This document shows positions 894 to 14,068 of a stretch of 14,787 nucleotides of DNA, piece by piece. Origin of the DNA: Bdellovibrionota bacterium (GTDB taxonomy: Bacteria; Bdellovibrionota_C; UBA2361; JBGSMV01); NCBI GenBank assembly GCA_044356455.1, contig JBIKWF010000109.1, forward strand, positions 1-14,787, in the 5' to 3' direction. Position numbers and translations under genes: made by a program. Below the pieces are notes generated by a model that saw only the letters and a list, made by a program, of their open reading frames with translations, was not told where the DNA came from and searched no databases. Numbering within the stretch: the first letter of the stretch is position 1; the number at the start of each line of letters is the position of its first letter.

Positions 894-1046
894 CAGCAAA
901 CTGGTACACCCCAACTTTTTCCACGTCGGTTTTGGAGCGACTCTCGGTCGCATCCTGAACAAATTCAACATGATAGCCTGGCGGAATATGCCGCAGAGTT
1001 AATCTGGGTCTTACTCGAAAACTTGGGGTGTACCAGCTTCTGCACC
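894..1046. mobile_element. 153-bp MITE/REPIN-like element, family A, copy 1
   Basis: Matches 6221-6373 and 6976-7128 except at 969 (C vs A) and 1014 (C vs T). Inverted repeats CTGGTACACCCCAACTTTT (901-919) and AAAACTTGGGGTGTACCAG (1018-1036) pair at 18/19. Internal hairpins GCGAC-N5-GTCGC (937-951) and GCGG-N6-CCGC (981-994). The repeat is seen directly; mobility is inferred. Confidence 0.85.
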
Positions 1047-2005
1047 ACCGTTTCGGGGTCCACTAGTGACCGCACCTTGATCAACATTTCGATTGCAAGC
1101 TCAGGTTCTAATAACTCTGATTTTGAGAATTCCACAACCGCAGCAGCAAAATCATCCATGTTAGGAATTTGCTGCCTCGTAACCTCATTGAGGAGGCCTC
1201 GGAAGACTTCAACACTGTGCGGTTCTGGTTTAACCTGTGAACTGCTTTCGATTTCGGTTAACAACCTCACTAGCTCTGTGTAAATTAGACTTGCAACTTT
1301 GCATTTCCCACCGATGTTAGAAAGGTTGCGAGCAAGTGTAGAGTAAGCGATGAGTTGATCGTTGGGATTAGTAAGGCGTGCGGCCAGATCAGTTCCGGCA
1401 ATCACCAGTGCGATTTGGTCCTGGCTGCGAAGTGACTGCTTGCTCTCAAACGCATTCACAAGATTTCCCCAGCTTGTTTGGACATCTTGGCTCGGCAGAT
1501 CAACACCGAAGTCCTCCAACACTTGGCTCGTGGTGCGAGTTTGGTAAATGCCGAGAGCGCCATTAAGTCTTTTGATGCCCCTGACAAGCGAGAGCACTGA
1601 CGCTACTCCCCCGGAAACTACTGTTGCTATACTGGTAGTGAATAGAACGGCGAAGCCGCTCATTCCGAGAAGCATATTATGTCCGCCCGACGCAATTCCC
1701 CAGTCTGCAAGATTACTTCCCCCTACAAAGCAGGCCCATCCCAAGCCAGCAGCCGATGCCGCGACGAGTGGCGACGTAGCAATCGACGCTAACCCAGAGA
1801 GCATTTCCTTCGTTCTTGTTCGTTGGAGGTCGCTAAAGCGGTCGGGAACCGAGAGAAGCGAAGCTTTCTTCTCGACCGCACCTGACGGGTCATCATGAGG
1901 GCATGATGGAAATGTTGCGGTGACTAGTGACGGTAGAGGTGCTGGCGCGTCGCCTAGCGCTTTGGCCCAGCCCCTAGCTTCTGGTCGGTGAGTTTCGGTA
2001 AGCAT
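965..2005 (-). CDS. Hypothetical membrane-associated protein (346 aa) whose C-terminus is encoded by element A1
   Basis: Long ORF with two Gly/Ala-rich hydrophobic segments (LASIATSPLVAASAAGLGWACFVGG; LLGMSGFAVLFTTSIATVVSGGVASVLSLV). The last ~26 codons and the stop lie inside 894-1046. Confidence 0.7.
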   Translation of the reverse strand: MLTETHRPEARGWAKALGDAPAPLPSLVTATFPSCPHDDPSGAVEKKASLLSVPDRFSDLQRTRTKEMLSGLASIATSPLVAASAAGLGWACFVGGSNLADWGIASGGHNMLLGMSGFAVLFTTSIATVVSGGVASVLSLVRGIKRLNGALGIYQTRTTSQVLEDFGVDLPSQDVQTSWGNLVNAFESKQSLRSQDQIALVIAGTDLAARLTNPNDQLIAYSTLARNLSNIGGKCKVASLIYTELVRLLTEIESSSQVKPEPHSVEVFRGLLNEVTRQQIPNMDDFAAAVVEFSKSELLEPELAIEMLIKVRSLVDPETVVQKLVHPKFSSKTQINSAAYSARLSC

Positions 2006-2103
2006 ATGTAGGTTATGCTTACGGCGTAAAGTCTACGCGCTTCTGCTCACTTCCCCTCTAAGCTCAAGAAAATGTTACCGAGGAGCGTCCAGAGGGAGCA
2101 CCT

Positions 2104-2227
2104 TAGGATACCCATTGTCCCCTATGTCTGGACTCGAGTTCCAGCTATTTGATTGGTGATTCCAAATTGTTAGCAGCACCGAAGGAATCTCAGGTAACTC
2201 TCGTGGTTACTAAGATTGGGTGTCCCA
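2104..2227. repeat. Family B inverted-terminus element, copy 1 (124 bp, degenerate left end)
   Basis: TAGGATACCCA (2104-2114, 2 mismatches to TGGGACACCCA) and TGGGTGTCCCA (2217-2227), with a 102-bp interior, the same spacing as B3. Confidence 0.6.
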
Positions 2228-2245
2228 CAGGGCAATTCTCAAGTG

Positions 2246-2272
2246 ACGCGGAGGACGCAGGGTACGCGGAGG
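2246..2272 (+). repeat. Imperfect 9-bp tandem repeat x3
   Basis: ACGCGGAGG ACGCAGGGT ACGCGGAGG. A related 9-bp-periodic motif occurs inverted at 3863-3880. Confidence 0.6.
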
Positions 2273-2480
2273 GTGAGTTTTTCAGAGGCTCCTTAGGAGA
2301 GCTGCGTAAGCAATCTAACTACTCCTCGTTCCCTTTCATTGCTGGAGCTCAGCAGCCTCCCCCTGGTTTCCAAGAGTGTTGCTCATTAGGTGCCGAATCT
2401 TCAGCCACTTACCAGAAAAGACGACATTTTAAAGGTAGGGTAAGGACTGCCCTGCGTAAGACCAGGCACTGGACGCCGCT

Positions 2481-3809
2481 ATGCCGTTAACGATCGGATC
2501 TAACATCAGCGCTCTGCAAACCCAGCGTGGCTTGAATCAAGCCAGCACGGCGCTGTCCCGTGCGCTGAATCGCCTTGCGTCCGGCTCCCGAATTACCACC
2601 GCCTCTGATGATGCTGCCGGGCTCTCTGTTGCCGACCAGCTTCGCAATAAGGGCCGTCTTTACGATACAGCGCTTCGTAACATCAATGACGGGATATCTG
2701 TGCTTAGCATTATCTCCGATACCCTTGGCAATCAGAAGTCTTTGGTGCAGCGCATGATTGAGCTGGCCGAACAATCGGCGAATGGGACCTTTTCGAGCGC
2801 TCAGCGTGATACCCTGAGCGCTGAGTACCGGCAACTTATGCAGGAATTCGGTCGGCTCGGCGACTCAACGTTCTTTAATGGTCGCAGTCTCATGCTTGGG
2901 GGCAGAGGAAGCAGTAATCCAGCATCGCTCCTCTTGCAGCTTGGGATCGATGGCGGGGCGGCGTCTCGGCTTGGGATCTCACTTGCCGACACCGGAACCC
3001 TGAGCGGCGTAATTGCCGAGTACAGCGCGCTAGGATCGGCCAGCTCGGTGGTAACTGGTGCAGAATACGAATCGTTTGATGCATTAATGGATGCGGTCCA
3101 AAATAAAGCAGTAAATCTCACTGTCAAGGACAGTCAGGGAGTGGATCGCGATATCGTGCTCGCATTCAGATACCAGTATTCGAATGGAACGTACGAGGCA
3201 GTGGTGTTTCAACGGCGTGTAGACATTGGAGACCCTGGCTATGAGCACATTTTGGAGCAGGCTTTAAGCAGCGATCCTGATAGCTGGTATGCAATGTCAG
3301 GAGTAGCGGTATCAGTTAACTCGGCGACTGGCATAGCGAGTGGTACTGGAACCATTTCGGTTAACCTAAACTTCGCCAATGGAACTGCTACTGGCGCGCT
3401 GTCGGTAGATTTGCGTGGCCTGCGATTTCTCTCTCCTATTAGTGCCCCACCACCAGTCGGAACAACCGACCGCACAAGCAACGATGGGATAACCAGTATC
3501 GAGTTTACCGGCGTTGAGAATGTGAGTCGTAGCCGAGCAGCCTTGGATATTTTGCGCAACCGACTCGACCAACTTTCTCTATTTCAAGGGAATATCGGAG
3601 CTAACCAGAGTCGCTTAACGGCGGCGCTTGAGGTGGCTAGAGCTTCAGGCGAGAATACTAAGGGAGCGGAATCCCGCATCCGCGACACCGATGTCGCTTC
3701 GGACTCCGCGATTCTTGTCGCGAGTCAAATTCGCCAATCGGTAGCAACTTCGGTTCTTGCCCAGGCCAATCAGCAAACACAATTAGCGCTCAGCCTGCTG
3801 CGCTTTTAA
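2481..3809 (+). CDS. fliC: Flagellin (442 aa)
   Basis: Flagellin N-terminal motifs (IGSNISAL, RLASGSRITTASDDAAGL, RNINDGIS, QRMIELAEQSANGT, FNG) and C-terminal motifs (IGANQSRL, AESRIRDTDVA, SVLAQANQ...LSLL) around a variable central region. Confidence 0.96.
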   Translation: MPLTIGSNISALQTQRGLNQASTALSRALNRLASGSRITTASDDAAGLSVADQLRNKGRLYDTALRNINDGISVLSIISDTLGNQKSLVQRMIELAEQSANGTFSSAQRDTLSAEYRQLMQEFGRLGDSTFFNGRSLMLGGRGSSNPASLLLQLGIDGGAASRLGISLADTGTLSGVIAEYSALGSASSVVTGAEYESFDALMDAVQNKAVNLTVKDSQGVDRDIVLAFRYQYSNGTYEAVVFQRRVDIGDPGYEHILEQALSSDPDSWYAMSGVAVSVNSATGIASGTGTISVNLNFANGTATGALSVDLRGLRFLSPISAPPPVGTTDRTSNDGITSIEFTGVENVSRSRAALDILRNRLDQLSLFQGNIGANQSRLTAALEVARASGENTKGAESRIRDTDVASDSAILVASQIRQSVATSVLAQANQQTQLALSLLRF

Positions 3810-3901
3810 TGTGAAAATATCGAACTCTTCCTCAGGAAGACCTGAAAAACTTTCTTTTTGAACTCCGTGTTCCCCGTGGTGAATTTCTTCATGTTCACAC
3901 T

Positions 3902-4028
3902 TGGGACACCCACTTTTTGTTCATTGAGGGCCCGCGAGCTCGAAACCTTTTCACTAACCATTCGAAATGATGAGCCATAGCATCGAATTGCTACCTTGTG
4001 CGTGATCGTGGAGTCATTGGGTGTCCCA
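3902..4028. repeat. Family B inverted-terminus element, copy 2 (127 bp)
   Basis: Perfect 11-bp inverted termini TGGGACACCCA (3902-3912) and TGGGTGTCCCA (4018-4028). 105-bp interior. CAGGGGG occurs twice at the right end. Confidence 0.75.
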
Positions 4029-4066
4029 GGGGGAAACCTTCAGGGGGAGCTCACTAGGGGAGCGGC

Positions 4067-6211
4067 TCATTTCTTCTCGCGTTCCCAGCCTTCTGTGCTG
4101 CTCCGCATGATACGCGTGGTGGAATACATAAGGTGCTCCCATGCGTTCGGGCTACCTTCAGCACGGTAATGTTCTTCCATTTCCCCGAAGGCGGCCATCG
4201 CTTCGGTTCCATAACGTCGCAGCAAAGCCTCAAAGTGTTGAATGAAGTTTGAGGGTAATCCTCGCATTCCAAATTTGAATGCATCAACGAGTTTTGGGAG
4301 TAGTTCTGCAGAAGGCTGAGCTTCAGCCTCCGCAAGAAGTTTTATGCAGCCGTGAATTCCCGAGCGCTGCAGTTCAAGTTCTTCTGGTTTTGTGGGAGAC
4401 CAATAAACAAGCTCATTAAGCGCGGTCGCGACCCAACTCGAATCCCCTTGCACCTTCGTGGGCAGGTTTGAAAGTCTATCCATGCAGAAGGCAATCTGTT
4501 CCGGTGACCGGCCAGCTTCTGTGAGACGGCGAAGAGACGGATGGAGAAGCTCGTTCTCACAATCGAGCATTTCAGTTGCCCGCAAACGAATTGTTTGCCG
4601 CGGTTCAGTTTGAGCTCCCATTAGTCCAAGCGCTGTTTCTAAAAGCGCATCCACTCCAGTCTGATCAAGGGCCGCAAAAACCATCTTCGCTGAGCGCTCA
4701 TAGATAAAGGGGCTTAAGCCGGGACCCACCACGGTATTTGGCGGCAGCTCCTCCGCGCCCCAGAGCCGCAGCACCTCAGCAAAGTCTTCAGTCATGTAGT
4801 CTGACTTGTCGTGACAAAGAATCGCTTCGACCGCCTGGGGGCCCATTGCAGCGAGCGCCACTACTGCGCCGCGCCGATGTGACTTATCGGCGTCAAAGAG
4901 GTCCAAAATTATCTTGTCAGGTGCACCCTGGTGACGGTCGTAGAGCATTGCCGCCTTCAGAAACACTTCACGGGGGAGGTCACCTACGTACGCGGCTCGA
5001 CCGGAAACGTCTCGAATTGCTGGTAGCGCTTGATTGGCTTGGTGAACGAATTCACGGTCCTCGAGCCCGCCTATTTTCCCAATCGTTCCGACGCAAACGG
5101 ACTGCACGCGCTGCCTAGGGGCTGGAATGACATTGGGAGGCAGGGAATCCGAAAAAGAACAGTTCGTCCACGGGTATTGCGGAAGCCTCGCGGGAGCGTC
5201 TCCTATCTTGAGAAGGAACGGCCTTTCGTGCCGAACCATACTACCGAGAGCTACGCGATCGTCCCGGGTCTGTACAAAGGGCTTGAGCCCGAAACGTTCT
5301 CCAAGCGCCAAAAGAACTTCCTCTGAACGTTCGATACCCAAGCCATTGGCTCCGCGAAAGCAGCGCATCTCTCCAAGAGGCGTTACCAGCGACACCTCGT
5401 GCAAAGTCGAATAGGCAAAGTGAAAACGCAGAAGGGGAGCACTTCCTGCGGCCACCCGCGCTCCATATTTCTCTACGGGCGCGAAGAGCTCAAAATCGTC
5501 GCCATCTTTTCCTCCCGAGCTTGGAAGTCTGCATTCTTTGGTCAAGAAGCGGTACAACGCTTCGCTGAGAGCGTGGCAGTCTGACAATGTAGTTCTAAGA
5601 GTTTGAGCATTTGCAGGTTCTTCTTTGCGCAGGAGTGCCGCGCCAATACCGGGGGGCAGCACATAGGTAAGTGCGTTCCCAAGGTCGCGCGCGGTAGCCC
5701 ACGCGATTCTCTCGCGCGCGAGAAGTACATTCTGATGAAAGACTTCTACCTCAGTAGCATCGTTTGGGAATGCGGCGCGGTAGTCTGCTAATTTAGGGTT
5801 GTCGCCAATCTTTTCTTCAATCGTGATTATATTTTGGCGGCGAAGCTCTCTGTCGTCTTGAGTGAGTCCATCGCGAAAGTAAGGATCCTGCGTGAGCGAG
5901 GTAAGGTGTTCAAAGAGATGCCGAGGTGAAAATCGTTCAGGCAGCTCTGTCATCGCTCGTGCAAAGAGTGCTCTCACGAGTTCGTCTGTTGAGGGTGGGA
6001 GCGTGCCCTTGGCTCCAAGCGCACGTGCGCGCGCCACCGCGGAGTCTGGTGCGGATAGCGGAACATCTAGGGAATTTTCAAGCCCCGGTTGTTTGGAAGC
6101 AGTAGAATGCACACCTGCTATTATGCTGGGTTTAGGTAACTTCGTCTCACAGGCAGGAACTCGGCAACTCTCCGGAATGCCTCGAGTTACCAACTGCGTT
6201 TGGAGGCTCAT
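4067..6211 (-). CDS. Large hypothetical protein (714 aa)
   Basis: 2.1-kb uninterrupted ORF. Pro/Ser-rich N-terminus and a helical-looking C-terminal third with one HEAT-like stretch (RRGAVVALAAMGPQAVEAIL). No family recognised. Confidence 0.8.
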   Translation of the reverse strand: MSLQTQLVTRGIPESCRVPACETKLPKPSIIAGVHSTASKQPGLENSLDVPLSAPDSAVARARALGAKGTLPPSTDELVRALFARAMTELPERFSPRHLFEHLTSLTQDPYFRDGLTQDDRELRRQNIITIEEKIGDNPKLADYRAAFPNDATEVEVFHQNVLLARERIAWATARDLGNALTYVLPPGIGAALLRKEEPANAQTLRTTLSDCHALSEALYRFLTKECRLPSSGGKDGDDFELFAPVEKYGARVAAGSAPLLRFHFAYSTLHEVSLVTPLGEMRCFRGANGLGIERSEEVLLALGERFGLKPFVQTRDDRVALGSMVRHERPFLLKIGDAPARLPQYPWTNCSFSDSLPPNVIPAPRQRVQSVCVGTIGKIGGLEDREFVHQANQALPAIRDVSGRAAYVGDLPREVFLKAAMLYDRHQGAPDKIILDLFDADKSHRRGAVVALAAMGPQAVEAILCHDKSDYMTEDFAEVLRLWGAEELPPNTVVGPGLSPFIYERSAKMVFAALDQTGVDALLETALGLMGAQTEPRQTIRLRATEMLDCENELLHPSLRRLTEAGRSPEQIAFCMDRLSNLPTKVQGDSSWVATALNELVYWSPTKPEELELQRSGIHGCIKLLAEAEAQPSAELLPKLVDAFKFGMRGLPSNFIQHFEALLRRYGTEAMAAFGEMEEHYRAEGSPNAWEHLMYSTTRIMRSSTEGWEREKK

Positions 6212-6220
6212 AAGCTACTT

Positions 6221-6373
6221 CAGCAAACTGGTACACCCCAACTTTTTCCACGTCGGTTTTGGAGCGACTCTCGGTCGCATCCTGAACAAATTCAAAATGA
6301 TAGCCTGGCGGAATATGCCGCAGAGTTAATCTGGGTCTTATTCGAAAACTTGGGGTGTACCAGCTTCTGCACC
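6221..6373. mobile_element. 153-bp family A element, copy 2
   Basis: Identical by eye to 6976-7128 and in the same orientation as the other copies. Begins 9 nt upstream of the ATG of the 714-aa gene. Confidence 0.85.
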
Positions 6374-6400
6374 GGCCGGCTCCAAGACAAGGACCCTGAT

Positions 6401-6847
6401 CTAAAGCGGAATCTGACGCGTATCAAAAAATGAGGCATTAAAGAGTCTCACCCAAACCACAAACACAGAGAGCGCAGCCAAACCGCTCGAAATAACAACC
6501 CGAGTTGTCCGGCTTTTAACTTTCAAAAGGTAGGGTAAAGGAGCCAAACATAGGGCCGCAACTAGTAGGTACAGGGCGCTGTCTGATGCAATCCAGTTGA
6601 AGAAGTCGTTAACTTCTGATGTCAACCGCCCGCAGCCGCTGTAGCAAATCTGAGGCCCCGAGCCGTTGGGCGTGAAATATTCATACCTTCTATCTCTTTG
6701 GAGCTCGCGTTGAAGAGCGAGCATCAAGAAACAACAAATCAGGTAAACGGCCTGCCACAATAGGACAAACGCAAGCCAGAGGAAGGGTTCTAGTGAGAAT
6801 AATGAAAACTTCGACCGAGCCGGCATCGAGACATTAGAATCTACCAT
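6401..6847 (-). CDS. Small membrane protein with about 3 TM segments (148 aa)
   Basis: SD-like AAAGGGG shortly before the ATG. Three hydrophobic segments and a loop containing CYSGC. Flanked by elements A2 and A3. Confidence 0.7.
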   Translation of the reverse strand: MVDSNVSMPARSKFSLFSLEPFLWLAFVLLWQAVYLICCFLMLALQRELQRDRRYEYFTPNGSGPQICYSGCGRLTSEVNDFFNWIASDSALYLLVAALCLAPLPYLLKVKSRTTRVVISSGLAALSVFVVWVRLFNASFFDTRQIPL

Positions 6848-6975
6848 TACTCAGACCCCTTTCAGATAAGTTTCAGGTGTGCTTTTTGTTGTTATGGAGA
6901 AAACGAATAAGTAGGACGCCTGATTCGGACACCCAAGATTTCAGACGTGCCAAATTTCGAAATATCGATTTCCTA

Positions 6976-7128
6976 CAGCAAACTGGTACACCCCAACTTT
7001 TTCCACGTCGGTTTTGGAGCGACTCTCGGTCGCATCCTGAACAAATTCAAAATGATAGCCTGGCGGAATATGCCGCAGAGTTAATCTGGGTCTTATTCGA
7101 AAACTTGGGGTGTACCAGCTTCTGCACC
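6976..7128. mobile_element. 153-bp family A element, copy 3
   Basis: Identical by eye to copy 2, with the same inverted termini and internal hairpins. Confidence 0.85.
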
Positions 7129-7212
7129 AGTTATTTAGGCGTGAGCCTTTTCTAACGAAGTGACTTCTGTCCGATGAAAGCGCGAGGCATATCCGTCCGC
7201 TATCGCGAATAT

Positions 7213-7995
7213 TTATAGCCTCTCCCACAACAGTTCGAACAGAGCGCACATCGTCTGGTAGTACTGGGGTTGGGTGATCTCAACTGCCATCTGGCTGCCC
7301 TCAGCATAGTTGGTTAGAAAAACGGAATCGCGGGCTAGGATGACGTCCGTTTGGAGCGCCGCCTCGCGTGGGACCTCCTTTATCTCGTGATTCGGATTTC
7401 GAATTCGGCGGCGATACCAGTCGAGTCGTGGTCCGGAAACGGCGATATCTCGAATACGCGGTTTTGTGCGAGCCGTCTGCTCAAGAAACTTGAGTACGAT
7501 AGCCCCAACGGCACCAGAGGTAGCACTCTCGGGATCCCAGAATGATCTAAAATCTCCGCTGCAGAGGACGTCCGAGAGCATCACGAGTGCGCCCTTGCCG
7601 GATTCTGCGGTGCGGATTCGAAGGTTACCCACTTGCAGGTGCGACCGTCTTTGGATCTTGGGGAGCTCCTCGCTCAGAAGCGTGGCGGCCAGCGCGACGT
7701 GGGCAGCTCGTTGCTCCGCCTCTCGCCTCAGTGACTCAACAATCAGGCCCGGATCCGCAGGGACATAGGTCACAATCTTCGTGCTCTGATCTCGGTGCAC
7801 TAGTCCGCGCTGCTCGAGATTAGTCAGTGATGAATAGACCGTAGAGCGCTTGATCTCTAGGCGGCGTGCGAGGACACCACCCGACGTTGGGCCTGTGGTC
7901 ATAAGATCCGCGAGGACGGTGCCCTCGGTGGTCGGGATCCCACACCGTTCCAGAAGGTTCACGATAGGTGGATGTTGTCGATCTTTCATCGGCAT
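7213..7995 (-). CDS. TrmB-family winged-HTH transcriptional regulator (260 aa)
   Basis: N-terminal pattern GxTxxExxV...GPTSGGVLARRLEIKRSTVYSSLTNLEQRGLV...Y.P.DP, a coiled linker, and a C-terminal effector-like domain ending FELLWE, as in TrmB-like regulators. Confidence 0.88.
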   Translation of the reverse strand: MPMKDRQHPPIVNLLERCGIPTTEGTVLADLMTTGPTSGGVLARRLEIKRSTVYSSLTNLEQRGLVHRDQSTKIVTYVPADPGLIVESLRREAEQRAAHVALAATLLSEELPKIQRRSHLQVGNLRIRTAESGKGALVMLSDVLCSGDFRSFWDPESATSGAVGAIVLKFLEQTARTKPRIRDIAVSGPRLDWYRRRIRNPNHEIKEVPREAALQTDVILARDSVFLTNYAEGSQMAVEITQPQYYQTMCALFELLWERL

Positions 7996-8040
7996 TTCTA
8001 TATCACATAATCTACTATAATTAATATAGAATTTATGATT
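7996..8040. promoter_or_regulatory. AT-rich divergent promoter/operator candidate
   Basis: TATAAT at 8016-8021 on +, and inverted repeat TTCTATAT (7996-8003) / ATATAGAA (8024-8031), between two divergent GC-rich genes. Confidence 0.5.
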
Positions 8041-8128
8041 TCTAGCTCATTCGACGAACTTATTTCAGCGGATATTGGAGACTCTCTTCACGACCCGCAC
8101 TGAAGCGAGGTCTTTAAAGAGGAGTGAT

Positions 8129-9058
8129 ATGGAAGCAAATACGGCAGTTCAATCAGGGAGCCTCGCGAATCTTTCTGCACCAGTCACAGCACCGCCAGTG
8201 CCGCGGATCGACCCCAACACGGGCTATCCGCTCGAGTCGCGTCTCTGGGTGCTTGGGGGGAGCGATCTCGAAATGAAGGTAATCGCCGGGCTGCTGCGGC
8301 TCGCAGGCGAGCGCTTTGTACAGCCGCGTAAAGAATGGGGCAACCACTCCTTTGATCCATCGGATCTCGGGATCGAAATGGTTGCGCGCGAATCCTCGTA
8401 TCACGGAGGGTTGGATCGCCGAAAGGAGCACCTTCCACGTGAGGGTCTTCCGAGGCTCTACGTCTTCGTTGAGTGTTCGCCTGGCAAAGGTTGGGAAGAC
8501 ACTAATCCAGTAGTTCTCGACCACCATGGCGAGCAATCTCAGTGGCCAGCCGCGGTACTACAGGTGCTGAAGAAGCTCGACTTGCAGATATCTGAACCGA
8601 CTCGGCGCTTCATCGAGCTGGTCGCGGCGAACGATGTCGCTCATATCGAGGGCATGCGGGCTCTTGGAGCCTCGATCGAGGAAATAGGAAGAATTCGAGC
8701 TCTCGATCGTGAGGCCCAGGGCATCGGTATTGAGCACGAGCGCGAAGCGGAGCGCGCCATCGGCAATCGTGTGCAGAAGGATCGACTCACCATTGTGTCT
8801 ATGGAGCATTCCAAGACCGCAACCGTAACAGATCGGCTCTATGGAAGTTACGACCAGCTCCTGGTCCGCTCAGGCGACGGCGAGGCAAACTTTTTCGGCG
8901 ATGGCAAACTCTGTGCGGAACTTCAGAAAAGATTCGGCGGCTGGTCAGGCGGTAGTGGTCTCGGCGTGCCAAGTCAGACGGCGTATTGGGGCATGTCAAA
9001 CGCCGGCGATAATGTTCAGAGTTTTATCGAAGAGCACCTTATGAATGGGGCTTCATGA
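8129..9058 (+). CDS. DHH-motif phosphoesterase, NrN-like (309 aa from ATG 8129)
   Basis: GAGGAG at 8119-8124 favours ATG 8129 over TTG 8075. Ordered motifs LGGSDLEM, FVE, LDHH, LQV, LVAAND, GMRALGAS.EEI..IR..DR.AQG and DRLY..YDQLLV match my recollection of the Bacteroides fragilis type III-B CRISPR-associated NrN. Confidence 0.75.
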   Translation: MEANTAVQSGSLANLSAPVTAPPVPRIDPNTGYPLESRLWVLGGSDLEMKVIAGLLRLAGERFVQPRKEWGNHSFDPSDLGIEMVARESSYHGGLDRRKEHLPREGLPRLYVFVECSPGKGWEDTNPVVLDHHGEQSQWPAAVLQVLKKLDLQISEPTRRFIELVAANDVAHIEGMRALGASIEEIGRIRALDREAQGIGIEHEREAERAIGNRVQKDRLTIVSMEHSKTATVTDRLYGSYDQLLVRSGDGEANFFGDGKLCAELQKRFGGWSGGSGLGVPSQTAYWGMSNAGDNVQSFIEEHLMNGAS

Positions 9059-9102
9059 GCGGCAGCGAAGATGTGACACGCTAGTGTATTGTTACCCGGG
9101 GC

Positions 9103-9139
9103 CTTGGCGCTTAACAGGAGTGAGCACCAAGCCTTGTTT
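9103..9139 (+). terminator. Possible intrinsic terminator of the DHH gene
   Basis: Imperfect stem CTTGGCGCTTA / TGAGCACCAAG followed by CCTTGTTT, about 45 nt after the stop. The U-tract is weak. Confidence 0.35.
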
Positions 9140-9278
9140 CAGGCCGCATTCGCTTCTGCTTGGGGCGCGCTTAGCGCTCATGCCGCTTCCACAAGGCGCC
9201 GAAAACCCTTGCCATTAACCTCGGCGAATCCGCGGGTAGCTGTGAGTAAGTAAATCAATCGTCCTGAGTATCTCCGGA

Positions 9279-9720
9279 GGGATAGGAGGGTAAGAGCTGA
9301 ATGAGTTTCAAACTGTTTGAAGTGGGCTGGTAGCGTAGCGACGGTCGTTCGCCGTGGTGGGCTGAAATGAGGGATGTGCCCTGGTTTCGGCTCTGCCTGG
9401 TGACCGACAGGCGAGCGATTTGGGATTTTTGGCGTTGTTTTTCGGTGTGTCGAGTGATTGCGGGAACACGGGTTACGCTGCCTGGGGAGTCAAGCGAAGT
9501 CGTCAGTGATGGAGAGTTTCTCTAAAGAGAGCGGTCCACGTTCTATGAAGGTTTCAAGCACCTCATCGCGCAGCACGCCGTAAGTCGGCTGAAACCAATC
9601 TTCCCAGGCCCGCGGGAGGTCATCCCGTCCGTGGCATACAATCCGGTACAGCGGCGACTCTTCCGGTTGCCTTCGGCGGTAGTGTTGGAGCTTCGCCTGC
9701 TACCAGCCCGCCTCCAAACC
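9279..9720 (-). mobile_element. Internally deleted IS91/ISCR-like element remnant (limits approximate)
   Basis: Contains a transposase fragment at 9490-9699. Downstream on the minus strand is CTCCTATCCC (9288-9279), resembling the TTCCTATACCC-type oriIS end of ISCR elements as recalled. Confidence 0.6.
9490..9699 (-). pseudogene. IS91-family (Y2/HUH) transposase fragment
   Basis: Manual translation: QAKLQHYRRRQPEESPLYRIVCHGRDDLPRAWEDWFQPTYGVLRDEVLETF-IERGPLSLEKLSITDDFA*. The first part resembles the N-terminus before the IS91 Zn-binding domain; IERGPLSLEKL resembles the (Y)xxRxPxSLExL segment of the Y2 domain. An in-frame TAG at 9702-9700 follows a GGAGG, and there is no start codon. Confidence 0.7.
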
Positions 9721-9805
9721 CTCCTAGGACGTCCTGTGACACACTCCTAGTCGAGGGCCGCTTAAAATGCTAGTTCTTTCGAGTTATTCTTCGGGGAATG
9801 TTCCT

Positions 9806-10858
9806 ATGAAATCATTCTGGTACTCAGCCCTCTTCCTGCTCACCCTGCTGTCTGCGAGCACTGCTTCCGCAGCACCCGTCAAGCTCACGGTTGGTTTCAT
9901 CGCGGCGCTCAGTGGCTCCGCTCAAAGTTACGGGGAGGCAGCTCGCAATGGCTTTGAAATGGCGCTCCGTGAAGTTAGAGACGTTGACGTTGGAGACGGC
10001 GCAATTCATGTGATCTACGAGGATGATCAATTCACTCCTGCAAAAACTGTCTCTAGTTTTAACAAACTCGCCAACCTTGATTCAATTGACGTAGCAGTAT
10101 GCGTAGGCTCAGCCACCTGCAATGCTATCGCTCCACTAGCTCAGTCGCGCGCCATTCCTTTGTTCGGGTGGGCCAGCGATAGAAACGTATCGCTTGGGCG
10201 CTCCATGGTGATGCGTACCTATCCGAGTGGTGAGAACGAAGGAAAACGAGCTGTCGAAGAAGCTCTCAGCAAGAACTTCTCAAAAATCGGCATGATCACC
10301 ACTATCCACGATTATCCTCAATCTTGGCGGGCTGGCGCACTAGAGACTCTTAAGCCTGAAAATTTGGCCTTTGAAACTCAGGTCATGCCTGACCTTAAAG
10401 ACTTTAGGTCTCTTTTGCTTAAAGCGCGCAGCCGTGGCGCTCAAGATTTATTGCTCTGTACACTTCCCGGTCAAGCGGGGCTAATCGCAAAGCAAGCTCT
10501 TGAGTTGGGAATAAAACCAAAAATTGGTGGCTGCGAGTTTCTATCGGATAAAAACGAACTCGCCCTTTCTGGCGGAGCTCTCAAGGGCGGCTGGTTCATC
10601 ACCGTTCAAGTCGCTCAAGCTTTTCGTGCGAACTACCTTGCTCAGTATAAGAATGACAATGCCATTTCTGGTGCAGTGGTTCACTACGATTTGGGAAAGC
10701 TATTACTCAAGGTGGCCGGAAAAGTTACCCGCCAAGAGTTAATTTCTGCGCTATTAAATCTGCGCCAGCATGAGAGCGCGGCTGGAACCGTGCTACTCAA
10801 GAACATCGAAGAGGATCGTTACTTTGAATATCCTCTCGTAGCTCAGATGATAGGGTAA
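9806..10858 (+). CDS. ABC-type periplasmic substrate-binding protein, LivJ/LivK-like
   Basis: Signal peptide from ATG 9806 (MKSFWYSALFLLTLLSASTASA|AP) with GGGGA upstream. Motifs VGFIAALSG..QSYGE..RNG.EMA, IYEDDQ..P, DFRSLLLK, and F...Y...Y. Confidence 0.9.
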   Translation: MKSFWYSALFLLTLLSASTASAAPVKLTVGFIAALSGSAQSYGEAARNGFEMALREVRDVDVGDGAIHVIYEDDQFTPAKTVSSFNKLANLDSIDVAVCVGSATCNAIAPLAQSRAIPLFGWASDRNVSLGRSMVMRTYPSGENEGKRAVEEALSKNFSKIGMITTIHDYPQSWRAGALETLKPENLAFETQVMPDLKDFRSLLLKARSRGAQDLLLCTLPGQAGLIAKQALELGIKPKIGGCEFLSDKNELALSGGALKGGWFITVQVAQAFRANYLAQYKNDNAISGAVVHYDLGKLLLKVAGKVTRQELISALLNLRQHESAAGTVLLKNIEEDRYFEYPLVAQMIG

Positions 10859-10861
10859 CGC

Positions 10862-12118
10862 GTGAATATTCTTTGGATAGCCTTTGTCTGGCCTGAGCCT
10901 GACTCCTCAGCAGCAGGCACTCGAACCCAGCAGCTGCTTCTCACGCTGCAAAAGCAAGGCTATCCCGTAACAGTGCTTTCCCCCTGCCAGGACAACAAGT
11001 ACCGGACAGCGCTCGAGCAGCAGGGTTTTCGCTGTTATCAATGCCCCCCTAATGACGCGCGATTTGATTCATTGCTCAAAGAGATTAATCCTCAGGTGGT
11101 CTTCTTCGACCGCTTTATGGTCGAAGAGCAATTCTCTTGGCGGGTTAAAGAGCACTGCCCAGAGGCCCTGCGTGTCTTAGACACTATCGATCTGCACTTT
11201 CTGCGGCGCGCTCGCCAACGCGCCTCTGAGCGGGGTGAAAGCGTTCAGAATCTTTGCGACTCCGAGAAGCACTCGACTGACACGCTGCGCGAGCTTTCTG
11301 CCATCTATCGCTCTGACCTTTCTCTCATTATTTCTTCTAGCGAGCTTCAACTCCTTCGCCACGAGTTCCAGATTCCGGAGTCTCTCCTTACCCTTTGCGC
11401 CATGTCCCGCGCGAAGCTTGAGAACTATCCAACTTTTGAAAATCGCAAAAACTGCGTAGCAATTGGAAATTTTAACCATCCTCCCAATAGAGATAGCGTT
11501 GAATTTCTAAGAGAGGATCTCTGGCCACGCATTAAAGGAATTTTGATTGAACGCGGAGTCTCGGCTCCCGAACTTCATATTTACGGCTCATACGCCAGCT
11601 CAGAGGTCTTAAAGCTTGATTCCTCAGCGACGGGTTTTCGAATTAAGGGATACACACCAGACGCGGCTCAAACTCTAAGCAACTACCGGGTCAATTTAGC
11701 CCCTCTGCGTTTCGGAGCGGGAGTAAAAGGAAAAATTCTCGACGGCTGGGCGGGCGGCACACCTAGCGCCGCAACCCACCTTGCAGCCGAGGGTATGACG
11801 ATGTGCAAGGAGGGCAGATCACTATTTGGCGGAATTTTAGAGGACTCCGCCGAGCACTTTGTGCAGCGCGCCGCGGATCTTTACTCTGACCAAGTCCTTT
11901 GGGAGAAGTCACAAACTGCTGGATTCGAAATACTAGAGGGCTGTTTTAACCCTCTGCGCAATGAGAACCTCTTCATCGAAGTACTTAAAGCCTCGTATGC
12001 GATGCGTCATGAGCGGCGCCTTCAGAACACCATCGGCGCCATGCTATGGTATCAAGGTAATCGAAGTACGGAATACTTTTCGCGCTGGATAGAGGAGAAG
12101 AACAAAGCCAACGCTTAG
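10862..12118 (+). CDS. GT-B fold glycosyltransferase, GT4 family (418 aa)
   Basis: Motifs WPEPDSSAAG.R, VFFDRFMVEEQFSWRV, LDTIDLHFLR, IGNFNHPPN.D, RVNLAPLRFGAGVKGKI, and STEYFSRWIEEKN. GTG start 3 nt after the upstream stop, suggesting an operon. Confidence 0.92.
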   Translation: MNILWIAFVWPEPDSSAAGTRTQQLLLTLQKQGYPVTVLSPCQDNKYRTALEQQGFRCYQCPPNDARFDSLLKEINPQVVFFDRFMVEEQFSWRVKEHCPEALRVLDTIDLHFLRRARQRASERGESVQNLCDSEKHSTDTLRELSAIYRSDLSLIISSSELQLLRHEFQIPESLLTLCAMSRAKLENYPTFENRKNCVAIGNFNHPPNRDSVEFLREDLWPRIKGILIERGVSAPELHIYGSYASSEVLKLDSSATGFRIKGYTPDAAQTLSNYRVNLAPLRFGAGVKGKILDGWAGGTPSAATHLAAEGMTMCKEGRSLFGGILEDSAEHFVQRAADLYSDQVLWEKSQTAGFEILEGCFNPLRNENLFIEVLKASYAMRHERRLQNTIGAMLWYQGNRSTEYFSRWIEEKNKANA

Positions 12119-12157
12119 GCCTCCTTCCAGGGGGGAGTGCCGCAGCGAATTCGCCCA

Positions 12158-12781
12158 TCAGCGCGCCGAATATTCGTCAAGTACCCTGGATAAGCTCGAA
12201 ATGGCGTAGACAGGCAGGCAGAGCATATCAGTTTCAATTTCCTTCGTTCCCTCCCCAGTGACCACGCGCTGCTTAACCTTACTTACAAAACTCTTTCGCT
12301 CGGAGAGATCAAACCGTACCACAACTTTCGCGCCTTTCGCGGCCACATACTGCCAAAGCGAGCGCATCTTTCCAGTAGCTCCGGATTTGACTTCTACTGG
12401 GTAGATGCGCCCTTTCTCGGCGATCAAAAAATCAATCTCGGCCGCGCCCTCTTTGCCTCCTCGCAACCAATAATAGAGCTCTGTCAGCTCAGTATCTCCT
12501 CTCCTAAATACCAAATGCTGCGCAATAAACTGCTCAGCCAGGAAGCCCTTGGTGAGTAGCTCCTCTGCTGGGAGCTTAAAAAGCTCCTCCCACTCCAACC
12601 CGGTTGCTGCGTTATAAAGACCAACATCTAAGAAGTATAGTTTCATCGTGCTTGGGTCCGCGCAGGCCTTCAATGGCAAACCTGAAGCCTTATTATTACT
12701 GGCTGCGTACACCACACTCGCTCTCGCCAAGACCGCGATAGCTTCTCTCACTCGACTAGAATGGGCGCCTGAAAAACTTAT
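12158..12781 (-). pseudogene. 5'-truncated AAA_14/DUF4143 ATP-binding protein (C-terminal half only)
   Basis: Motifs KLYFLDVGL, GFLAEQFIAQHL, LYYW, AEIDFLI and YPVEVKSG (DUF4143 with PD-(D/E)xK-like end). No Walker A/B. The nominal TTG start (12793) and first codons fall inside the left end of element B3. Confidence 0.82.
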
Positions 12782-12905
12782 TGGGACACCCAATTTCTAT
12801 AGCCGAGAGTGAGGGCTGAAGTTCCCCTTAAGCGGCTAACGGCCTGAAATAAATAGTCGCCCTGCTTCGGCCTGAATTAGGCAACGGGAAAGAATGGGTG
12901 TCCCA
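12782..12905. repeat. Family B inverted-terminus element, copy 3 (124 bp)
   Basis: TGGGACACCCA (12782-12792) and TGGGTGTCCCA (12895-12905), with a 102-bp interior. Confidence 0.75.
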
Positions 12906-12936
12906 GGGGGCTTCCCAGGGGGCTTCCCAGGGGGCT
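12901..12936 (+). repeat. Perfect 12-bp tandem repeat x3 (TCCCAGGGGGCT)
   Basis: Units at 12901-12912, 12913-12924 and 12925-12936. The first overlaps the right terminus of B3. Confidence 0.92.
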
Positions 12937-12945
12937 CGATGTCAA

Positions 12946-13929
12946 TTACCGAATCGCCCTCTTGTAGCTCTGCCCTTCCGTAAGGGAGACCTCCCCCTTC
13001 TTTGCAACCAAGAAGTCAACGTCGGTAATAGTCGACGAAACGGAGTGGTCATTTACCGAAGGAGAAGTCACCTCGAAATGAAGATAGGATGCGAGTGGCC
13101 CTTGGCTAGGCGCTACCGCACCGATAGGAGTTCCCGCTTCAACTTTCTGGCCTAGGCTTACACGATTCGCTCCCGTAGTGATGTAATAATATCTATCTAT
13201 AGTTCCATCAGCGTTCTCAATATAGAGATGAGCGATGTCGTCGCCTGGGTCATCGAGTTGAACGTCGCTGCCCATAGTGCCGGCAGTAAAATCCACGATA
13301 GTGCCCGAACGAGCGGCGAGAACTGTGGTTCCAACCGGGGCCTGGAAGCGGAAACTTGCGTCACTGCCGCCACTTGGCTTGTACAGCAGCTTTGTTGCCC
13401 CAAGGAGCTGAAGAGGTAGCAGGAACCTTCCCGTAGGCTCTGCGTTTTGCTTCCCCCAGTCCCAGCTAAACGAATAATTATACTCCCAATCAAACCAGCC
13501 TATGAGTTGGCTGTAGGTGCTAATGTAAAGCCTCTGGCAAGGCGCGAGCACGTAGGATGGTTCGGGAAACGTGCCTTCCTTGTAGGGAACCATATTCTTC
13601 GCTTCTACCTCAAACGAGGCAGTAACGCTGGAGAACTGCTCATTTTCGAAGTAGAAGCGCACGGAGTTACCATCATCAATTTTCTCCGCGACCACGCATA
13701 CTCCGCCATGACATTTTCGTTTAACTCGATCGCTGTTTCCCGCGAGAGCTGAGAGAACGGAGAGCACGGCGTCTGCATTACTGTTACTGGAGGCGTTCTG
13801 AGAAAAACAAGGTCCACGGCCTTCGACTTCCGAGGGCCTTGCACCGTTCATGGTAGCGCAGCCTGTCGTCAGTGCGGTGGCTGTGAGAAGAATGAGTGCC
13901 TTTTTTATACGACTAGCGAGATGCAGCAT
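12946..13929 (-). CDS. Lipoprotein with a degenerate M23/LytM peptidase domain
   Basis: Lipobox-like RIKKALILLTATALTTG|C. M23 pattern F.APVGT.VLAARSGTIV, LYIENADGT..RY, VSLGQKVEAGTPIG, LHFEV. Start is ATG 13929 or 13944. Confidence 0.82.
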   Translation of the reverse strand: MLHLASRIKKALILLTATALTTGCATMNGARPSEVEGRGPCFSQNASSNSNADAVLSVLSALAGNSDRVKRKCHGGVCVVAEKIDDGNSVRFYFENEQFSSVTASFEVEAKNMVPYKEGTFPEPSYVLAPCQRLYISTYSQLIGWFDWEYNYSFSWDWGKQNAEPTGRFLLPLQLLGATKLLYKPSGGSDASFRFQAPVGTTVLAARSGTIVDFTAGTMGSDVQLDDPGDDIAHLYIENADGTIDRYYYITTGANRVSLGQKVEAGTPIGAVAPSQGPLASYLHFEVTSPSVNDHSVSSTITDVDFLVAKKGEVSLTEGQSYKRAIR

Positions 13930-14068
13930 ATGCCTCCAAAGCATCTAGATCGCTCCAGTGATCGGCGGAAAGGGCACATTTCTTTAGTAGATCTAGCCCG
14001 TCATGCCCACGGGCCCCAAGGCTGAAATTTGCTGCGGCCGCACCCTTACGCTCAGCTAATTCGGGTCG

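Follow-up and report, generated by a model that had tools for sequence, protein, structure and literature searches.

Contig JBIKWF010000109.1 of a Bdellovibrionota bacterium, analysed here over its whole length of 14,787 nucleotides (the window; contig C100 in the 4.7-Mb, 216-contig assembly GCA_044356455.1), contains six short elements with inverted ends that alternate with functionally unrelated genes. We consider it probable that these are gene-less doublets of terminal inverted repeats (TIRs) of two Y1 transposase elements, cut in trans and joined to unrelated DNA, and that the region they occupy is a patchwork island. The elements likely reshuffle this gene island rather than mark integron-like cassette borders. 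Judged by sequence models, the six belong to two unrelated families, A and B; the ends of each match those of Y1/HUH genes elsewhere in the genome, and family B combines an almost fixed length with an internal site resembling that of integration host factor (IHF).

The motif TGGKACACCC occurs exactly at 11 sites in the window, where 0.02 are expected, and none of 200 shuffles contained 11 or more, which confirms the shared end motif noticed in an earlier, sequence-only reading of this DNA. Five complete inward-facing pairs lie at 902-1035, 3902-4028, 6229-6362, 6984-7117 and 12782-12905; a sixth, at 2104-2227, has one degenerate end and a polarity reversed with respect to the other five. The elements are:

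894..1046, plus strand: family A copy 1 (A1), a 153-nt unit with TGGTACACCCC...GGGGTGTACCA at 902-1035
2097..2235, minus strand: family B element B1, motif-to-motif 2105-2226 (122 bp), one end degenerate
3894..4036, plus strand: family B element B2, motif-to-motif 3903-4027 (125 bp)
6221..6373, plus strand: family A copy 2 (A2)
6976..7128, plus strand: family A copy 3 (A3)
12774..12913, plus strand: family B element B3, motif-to-motif 12783-12904 (122 bp), with an IHF-like core matching at 8/9 positions

The three A copies are 98-99% identical across 153-156 nt and have in common 8 nt to the left and 11 nt to the right of the motif pair. Among the B elements, B1 has its IHF-like core 69 nt from the right end, and B2 is 88% identical to a copy on contig C112. 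B3 is followed by a 12-nt tandem stutter that runs up to 12936. Such tandem stutters of end or outer bases stand beside TIRs in the window (12905-12936) and at four other loci (L053, L077, L222 and L304), and look as if an end had been re-joined next to itself.

The sequence-only reading had treated all six as one kind of element with shared inverted ends. The elements are real, but the single family does not hold, for a model built from 21 B copies alone fails to detect A. An iterated model (E<0.01) gave 36 hits in the genome, of which 33 are B copies and three are A copies that had been placed among the seeds; for the same reason the A hits of the first model were circular. The reversed genome yielded no hit with the same model. 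A-type pairs elsewhere in the genome are 37-136 bp long (n=11 pairs) and thus not constrained in length, so the common 124-134 bp span seen in the window is partly coincidence. The elements are strongly clustered: 22/36 lie within 5 kb of another, where 2000 random intergenic placements gave 2.6 on average and 12 at most, and seven model hits fall within ~20 kb on contig C211. Gene-less TIR copies are therefore dispersed as dimers and clusters in this genome, as expected of TIRtrons. A mixed cluster is present on contig C23, where two 300-bp doublets with C84-type ends (1467-1765 and 5710-6009) have beside them two 93-94-bp doublets with A-type ends (2423-2515 and 5513-5606).

Family B has a tightly defined architecture. 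Inward TGGGACACCCA pairs (at most one mismatch, less than 400 bp apart) measured 113-127 bp in 15/15 cases, and no outward pair within 400 bp was found genome-wide. Motif-to-motif lengths of the 22 two-ended B copies were 122 bp (8 copies), 121 (6), 120 (2) and 119 (2), with single copies at 125, 114, 111 and 110 bp. A core, CTAAC-N3-YTGAAA, lies 68-70 nt from the right end in 20/22 of these copies, and exactly 69 nt in 16. Interiors have a median pairwise identity of only ~45%; their linkers drift while core and spacing are kept. Read on the other strand, the core matches the IHF consensus string at 7/9 or more positions in 18/22 B copies versus 0.4% of 3586 other positions, scored as the best of three adjacent positions and with A or G allowed at the sixth position of the consensus, whose standard form appears alongside IHF in 24 papers. 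Without their ends, the interiors are mostly unstructured as single-stranded DNA (fold z of -2 or lower in 2/25). Family A has a 7/9 IHF match near its centre, on the opposite strand, that may be due to chance. We also considered helical quantisation of element length and dropped it as weak and only suggestive; a periodicity test of B interiors peaked at 12-13 nt instead of 10.5.

As the sequence-only reading had said, the window lacks a cognate transposase or integrase (0/12 scanned proteins were a Y1 transposase or an integrase), and the only transposase remnant found there is an IS91-like fragment. This piece of an IS91-family (Y2 HUH) transposase lies on the minus strand at 9242-9720; within it, 9547-9698 matches the open reading frame (ORF) of a relative that has Pfam Zn_Tnp_IS91, and contig C198 shares 96% identity over 9242-9536. 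The trans-acting Y1 enzyme that the same reading had proposed is supported by Y1/HUH genes elsewhere in the genome whose ends match those of the elements. Three weak Pfam hits, then used as queries, led to these and further genes.

For family A, TGGTACACCCCAACTTTTT precedes a Y1 gene on contig C29 and matches the left end of the family, with identity over 19-20 nt; Y1 genes on C88 and C179 have near-identical A-type ends upstream, and all three genes are without 3' ends in the assembly. The A partner is a long class-2 YxxxNP Y1 family present in 91/101 genomes searched. In relatives, an end resembling TGGT[AG]C..CC.AC accompanies this family on 21/44 5' arms (chance 1.2%) and 12/42 3' arms (chance 2.6%).

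For family B, unpaired B sites near contig ends pointed to a second Y1 gene, with the motifs NHLH and YIDLNP. Its motifs, length and insertions fit the subclass 2.3 of Quentin et al. (PMC6006769), an assignment based on NHLH and YIDLNP in the genome's own fragments, a full relative of 324 aa and the core insertions. The Pfam Y1_Tnp and NF047646 matches of 2.3-type proteins fall below cut-off. The gene carries GGACACCCA / TGGGTGTCC on 5/5 assembled 5' parts and 5/5 3' parts, and these ten parts are 92-100% identical to the query proteins. It is present in 20/101 genomes searched, and at least 13 of 38 relative 2.3-type loci, some of which overlap, have the B motif at both ends. The genome thus contains what defines a TIRtron, a Y1 gene that has HuH and YxxxNP and carries the repeat, inverted, on both flanks.

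Three further observations concern the Y1 genes themselves. In five 2.3-type 3' parts (on C17, C181, C147, C110 and C64) the coding tails share 85-96% identity as far as the stop codon; the 160-187-nt arms from stop to TIR align no better than shuffles and have no other match in the genome. Either these 3' arms were replaced or the genes were homogenised between old copies. At C19:85174-85307, the 5' end of a Y1 element is fused, along with 8 outer bases, into the opening codons of that element's own gene, forming a 133-nt tandem duplication with an exact junction. Finally, GGGACAGCCC occurs at about 70 genome sites as part of an abundant repeat, CTACATGTTGTGGTGGC...GGGACAGCCC, which is also found inside the 5' arms of 2.3-type copies on C118, C150 and C189.

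Rearrangement breakpoints coincide with element ends, as had been predicted. Homology of the flanks stops outside the TGG, by 8 nt at the left end of B2, by 6-8 nt at B1 and by 8 nt at a 100%-identical case on C19; further offsets are 7 (or 1), 10, 11, ~6 and 3 nt. Sister ends in a similar family found in related genomes lose identity to chance level after nt 9 (106 pairs), and those of family A are alike to nt 11 and then at chance (12 pairs). There was no excess of target duplications (6 nt or more in 1/25, versus 3.4% by chance), and in empty-site tests the interrupted sequence continued across the element in 0/6 cases. [quoted passage not shown] Junctions that mostly fall 6-11 nt beyond the motif, the lack of a target duplication and the loss of the partner half fit end-joining with adjacent deletion.

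The neighbours of the elements in the window are:

965..2005, minus strand: 346-aa orphan ORF, truncated by A1, its frame ending inside the element
2236..2295, plus strand: right half of an abundant palindromic MITE, cut 6-8 nt outside the B1 motif
2481..3809, plus strand: flagellin-family gene, between MITE halves
3829..3893, plus strand: left part of a second palindromic repeat, cut 8 nt outside the B2 motif
4067..6211, minus strand: 714-aa orphan ORF, between B2 and A2
6401..6847, minus strand: 148-aa hydrophobic ORF, between A2 and A3
7213..7995, minus strand: gene for a TrmB-like helix-turn-helix regulator, ending 85 nt from A3
12158..12773, minus strand: C-terminal half of an AAA_14+DUF4143 gene, cut just outside the left motif of B3
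12946..13944, minus strand: M23 peptidase gene, ending just beyond B3

Two of these genes have the altered ends that the sequence-only reading had noticed. The 346-aa ORF, cut at A1, is 48% identical to a 399-aa homologue up to residue 321 and lacks ~84 C-terminal residues; the DUF4143 ORF, cut at B3, corresponds to the C-terminal ~205 aa of ~460-aa AAA_14+DUF4143 proteins, and no close N-terminal half was found in the assembly. A third fragment, half of a periplasmic-binding-protein gene, neighbours an element on C211. The other half of the MITE is not on the far side of B1. The flagellin segment (2288-3813) has an 87% identical copy on C169, and B1 and B2 flank the gene with the same type of end, the left one. 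A homology search with the 714-aa ORF returned only itself, and the 148-aa ORF has single-copy depth in lake metagenome contigs. An apparent rule that elements lie at gene 3' ends applies to 5/6 in the window and fails genome-wide, where the ends flanking 24 full elements are mixed (5'/3' 9, 3'/5' 6, 5'/5' 5 and 3'/3' 4, by heuristic gene calls that missed some small genes). An Rfam scan of the window gave no RNA family match. Positions 1-98 recur without a difference at the ends of contigs C146 and C93; the window therefore starts in a repeat that the assembly left unresolved.

The exact paired pattern is found in 4/101 genomes including this one; the same-genus genome lacks it. Five genomes of another family, picked because they had hits, contain doublets of their own with GGTACACCCTAC ends: 11/25 pairs measure 119-121 bp and 5 measure 112-114 bp, an IHF-like site lies 39-41 nt from one end in 12/18, and in that family Y1 genes have matching ends on their flanks. 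These doublets escape the B model, so their similar size of ~120 bp may be convergent. At locus L336 (G073:C40:4000-16000), two 180-182-bp doublets enclose a 112-bp doublet, with the inner end degraded and a new outer end, which suggests that elements grow by gaining a new end. The full B architecture was found neither in GTDB contigs nor in JGI metagenomes (0 hits each), and it is missing from the 2 loci matched by a relaxed pattern and from the 6 loci of a viral scan. Paired GGGACACCCA occurred at 116 loci across many phyla, mostly irregular TIR clusters; three of them hold a 2.3-type gene, and the matches listed show no length peak at 121-122. A loose TGGTRC pattern, with hits in 30/101 genomes, was set aside since many of its hits are one conserved coding stretch, which we take to be cytochrome oxidase.

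Gene order was followed in relatives and in lake metagenome contigs. In the stretches compared around the glycosyltransferase gene, no other gene of the window recurs in the same-genus genome or in either of two further relatives. Contigs of four metagenome runs were set against the window and of four against the C211 cluster, five distinct runs in all; run X1 may be the source sample, and such contigs drop rare variants. The contigs of one run bridge B1, B2 and B3 together with three C211 elements. At every A copy the contigs are interrupted, which leaves the order across A1-A3 without independent confirmation. The sequence-only reading had looked to synteny breaks, empty sites and circular junctions as checks: breaks are indeed found at element ends; no empty site appeared in 0/6 tests of the flanks, and no excision joint in the lake metagenome contigs.

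We propose the following mechanism. Each Y1 enzyme would recognise the end of its own family. At family B, host IHF would bend the ~122-bp element and bring both ends together on the enzyme, which would explain why length and core are conserved. The catalytic tyrosine would cut ~8 nt outside the motif and join that end to unrelated DNA, and one-ended or intramolecular events, attacking nearby DNA, would delete or rearrange the flank. Repeated local events would produce clusters that resemble arrays, and DNA between two elements might be moved occasionally, without forming precise, oriented cassettes. Cutting outside the repeat and joining to unrelated DNA would account for the truncated neighbours and the patchwork island.

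Several results weigh against this proposal. No complete 2.3-type copy was assembled, and each of the ten parts sits at a contig end or close to one. Autonomous 3' arms are without the core at the corresponding place, and the minis therefore did not arise from them by simple deletion. For ihfA and ihfB, best NCBIfam matches are present in the genome, yet both score under the curated cut-offs. Large changes in element length approximate one helical turn in only 3/5 cases (-12, -11 and +10, the last in family A); the others are -8 and +3, and the variant in relatives is -8. The junction offset varies between 3 and 11 nt, with 6/14 flank alignments uninformative; the profile of family B sister pairs (25 pairs, noisy) has no clean boundary, and some autonomous ends that are identical inside diverge from the first 1-2 nt outside. 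At panC, gene order is conserved in the same-genus genome, although the relative has a 562-aa gene that is missing at the position where this genome carries the element. Neither an excision joint nor a reordering at elements was seen in the lake metagenome contigs. Lastly, TnpA-REP, a relative that has been characterised, is reported to cut single-stranded DNA only (PMC3333891). This is hard to square with a double-stranded substrate bent by IHF, unless IHF acts before the strands open; the core may also have another role.

The same data bear on other explanations. The elements could be ordinary selfish minis that inserted cleanly by a Y1 reaction and survived only in dispensable DNA, the truncations having come later through host recombination or other transposons. 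Clusters do lie in accessory-looking regions with toxin-antitoxin genes, orphans and MITEs, the window itself also carries MITE and IS91 debris, and solitary copies occur next to conserved genes, panC among them, without a change of order. Unrelated deletions, however, are not expected to place breakpoints recurrently 3-11 nt from the motif, and the partner half was on the far side at 0/6 junctions; we regard this explanation as unlikely. Still less probable is a dedicated gene-cassette system, in which elements bound intact modules that a Y1 enzyme excises, circularises and re-inserts, as the sequence-only reading had suggested when it described capture and shuffling of genes. Six elements in 12 kb, seven model hits within ~20 kb of C211, functionally unrelated neighbours, a flagellin paralogue flanked by two B ends, and a window gene order that is not found around the glycosyltransferase in three relatives would all suit such a system. 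It does not fit the mixed gene orientation (24 elements), the three neighbours that are fragments or the interleaving of two families with different enzymes; moreover, no element-bounded module of the window is duplicated in the genome, and excision joints did not appear in the lake metagenome contigs.

We find it very improbable that the elements are domesticated host sites, comparable to BIME-1 and kept for nucleoid folding, transcription or mRNA stability after mobility was lost. Conservation of core and spacing despite 45% median identity would be consistent with this, as would the IHF site between two inverted REP sequences (repetitive extragenic palindromes) which the accessible accounts of BIME-1 describe (PMC2817692, PMC3333891). 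On the other hand, the exact pattern is missing from the same-genus genome and from 97/101 genomes, there is no bias to gene 3' ends, and the near-identical A copies and the 88% identical B pair indicate recent copying. An integron origin, with odd attC-like sites serving the genome's integron integrase, is scarcely credible. Such an integrase is encoded on C92, but an attC model built from the genome's own sites (3 seeds, so that distant attC could escape it) gave a best window E of 1.4, 0/36 elements lie within 5 kb of an attC-model hit, and the sole R-box-like pair in the window sits inside a gene. The earlier description of an array without attC sites agrees with this search, in which our model found nothing in the window. 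The integron at C92:118-1062 is complete and has its three attC-like sites on the upstream side of intI, and more attC-like hits occur on C24 and C172.

Trans cutting of gene-less TIR doublets by Y1 enzymes remains the reading we favour. A stronger version, in which TIR-type Y1/HUH enzymes transpose double-stranded DNA through a synapse into which IHF folds a ~122-bp mini, cut both ends ~8 nt outside the repeat and use pairs of minis to capture and move the DNA between them, is doubtful, although it would, if true, mean that genes are shuffled by a class of enzymes so far believed to be limited to single-stranded hairpins. TIRYT and subclass-2.3 Y1 enzymes are widespread yet little-studied, and this genome offers enzyme-substrate pairs, a predicted host factor at a fixed position and a predicted cut zone. 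It thereby brings within reach of a direct test whether these HUH enzymes act on bent double-stranded ends and whether they trim and rearrange gene islands.

Among known systems, integron cassette arrays, as usually defined, resemble the island in having repeats that alternate with unrelated genes; they differ in that the island has no attC found by our model, no common orientation, truncated cargo and no link to a tyrosine recombinase. BIME-1/RIB elements and REPINs, as far as the consulted texts describe them, share two inverted Y1-associated repeats, a linker with an IHF site (predicted here), the lack of a gene and service in trans (probable here) (PMC2817692, PMC3333891). Unlike them, the present elements have neither a GTAG foot nor REP hairpins, their ends are 11-19-nt motifs, their interiors are mostly unstructured, and they number ~33 divergent copies rather than hundreds. 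The GT[AG]G foot with hairpin that identifies REPs is replaced here by ends of the form TGG[GT]ACACCC. Correia elements, descendants of a DDE transposon, duplicate TA; the present elements show no target duplication, have a Y1/HUH partner and stand beside flanks that are lost rather than preserved. The likeness to Correia/NEMIS, in the portions of the articles seen, lies in short size, terminal inverted repeats and an internal IHF site, predicted here and suggested there to aid transposition (PMC2229807, PMC10969869).

IS200/IS605 elements have a short TnpA with YxxxQ and subterminal hairpins, according to the available text of PMC6006769, whereas the partners here are 320-340 aa long, with YxxxNP and inverted ends. 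In the same text, subclass 2.3 is characterised by NHYH, YVDLNP, a length of ~325 aa and long core insertions (Quentin et al. 2018, PMC6006769). The B partner is alike in its NH[LY]H and Y[IV]DLNP motifs, its length of about 325 aa, its two core insertions and its multicopy state. Its authors found no REP-like flanks for 2.3 and tied TIRs mainly to 2.1, whereas the 2.3-type genes here have GGACAYCC inverted ends and a dispersed gene-less family. The literature searched, for the most part the running text of articles available without subscription, contained neither fixed-length IHF-cored TIR doublets nor TIRs at subclass 2.3 genes.

The closest relatives are the TIRtrons (TIRYTs), which the text of Di Nocera, De Gregorio and Rocco (2013, PMC3733652) presents as Y1 genes flanked by TIRs, with TIR repeats dispersed as dimers or clusters and a consensus GGGGWSAS. 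Here, too, Y1 genes have terminal inverted repeats and dispersed dimers and clusters occur; the family B end TGGGACAC is close to the consensus, at 7/8, whereas family A, with TGGTACAC at 6/8, departs from it in its TGGT[AG]C end. The text of that article as consulted describes neither a fixed spacing of ~122 bp nor an IHF-like core at a set position, and neither junction offsets nor lost flanks; it names assays of TIR binding and cleavage by the enzyme as a task for the future. TIR-flanked Y1 genes with dimeric TIR repeats having been published (PMC3733652), the undescribed system for which the sequence-only reading saw a candidate is not supported. Families A and B are gene-less TIR doublets of TIRtrons; TIR-flanked Y1 genes, TIR dimers and IHF sites between inverted ends (BIME-1, Correia) are already known from the published texts consulted, and the architecture of family B, with its fixed length and IHF-like core, is the new part.

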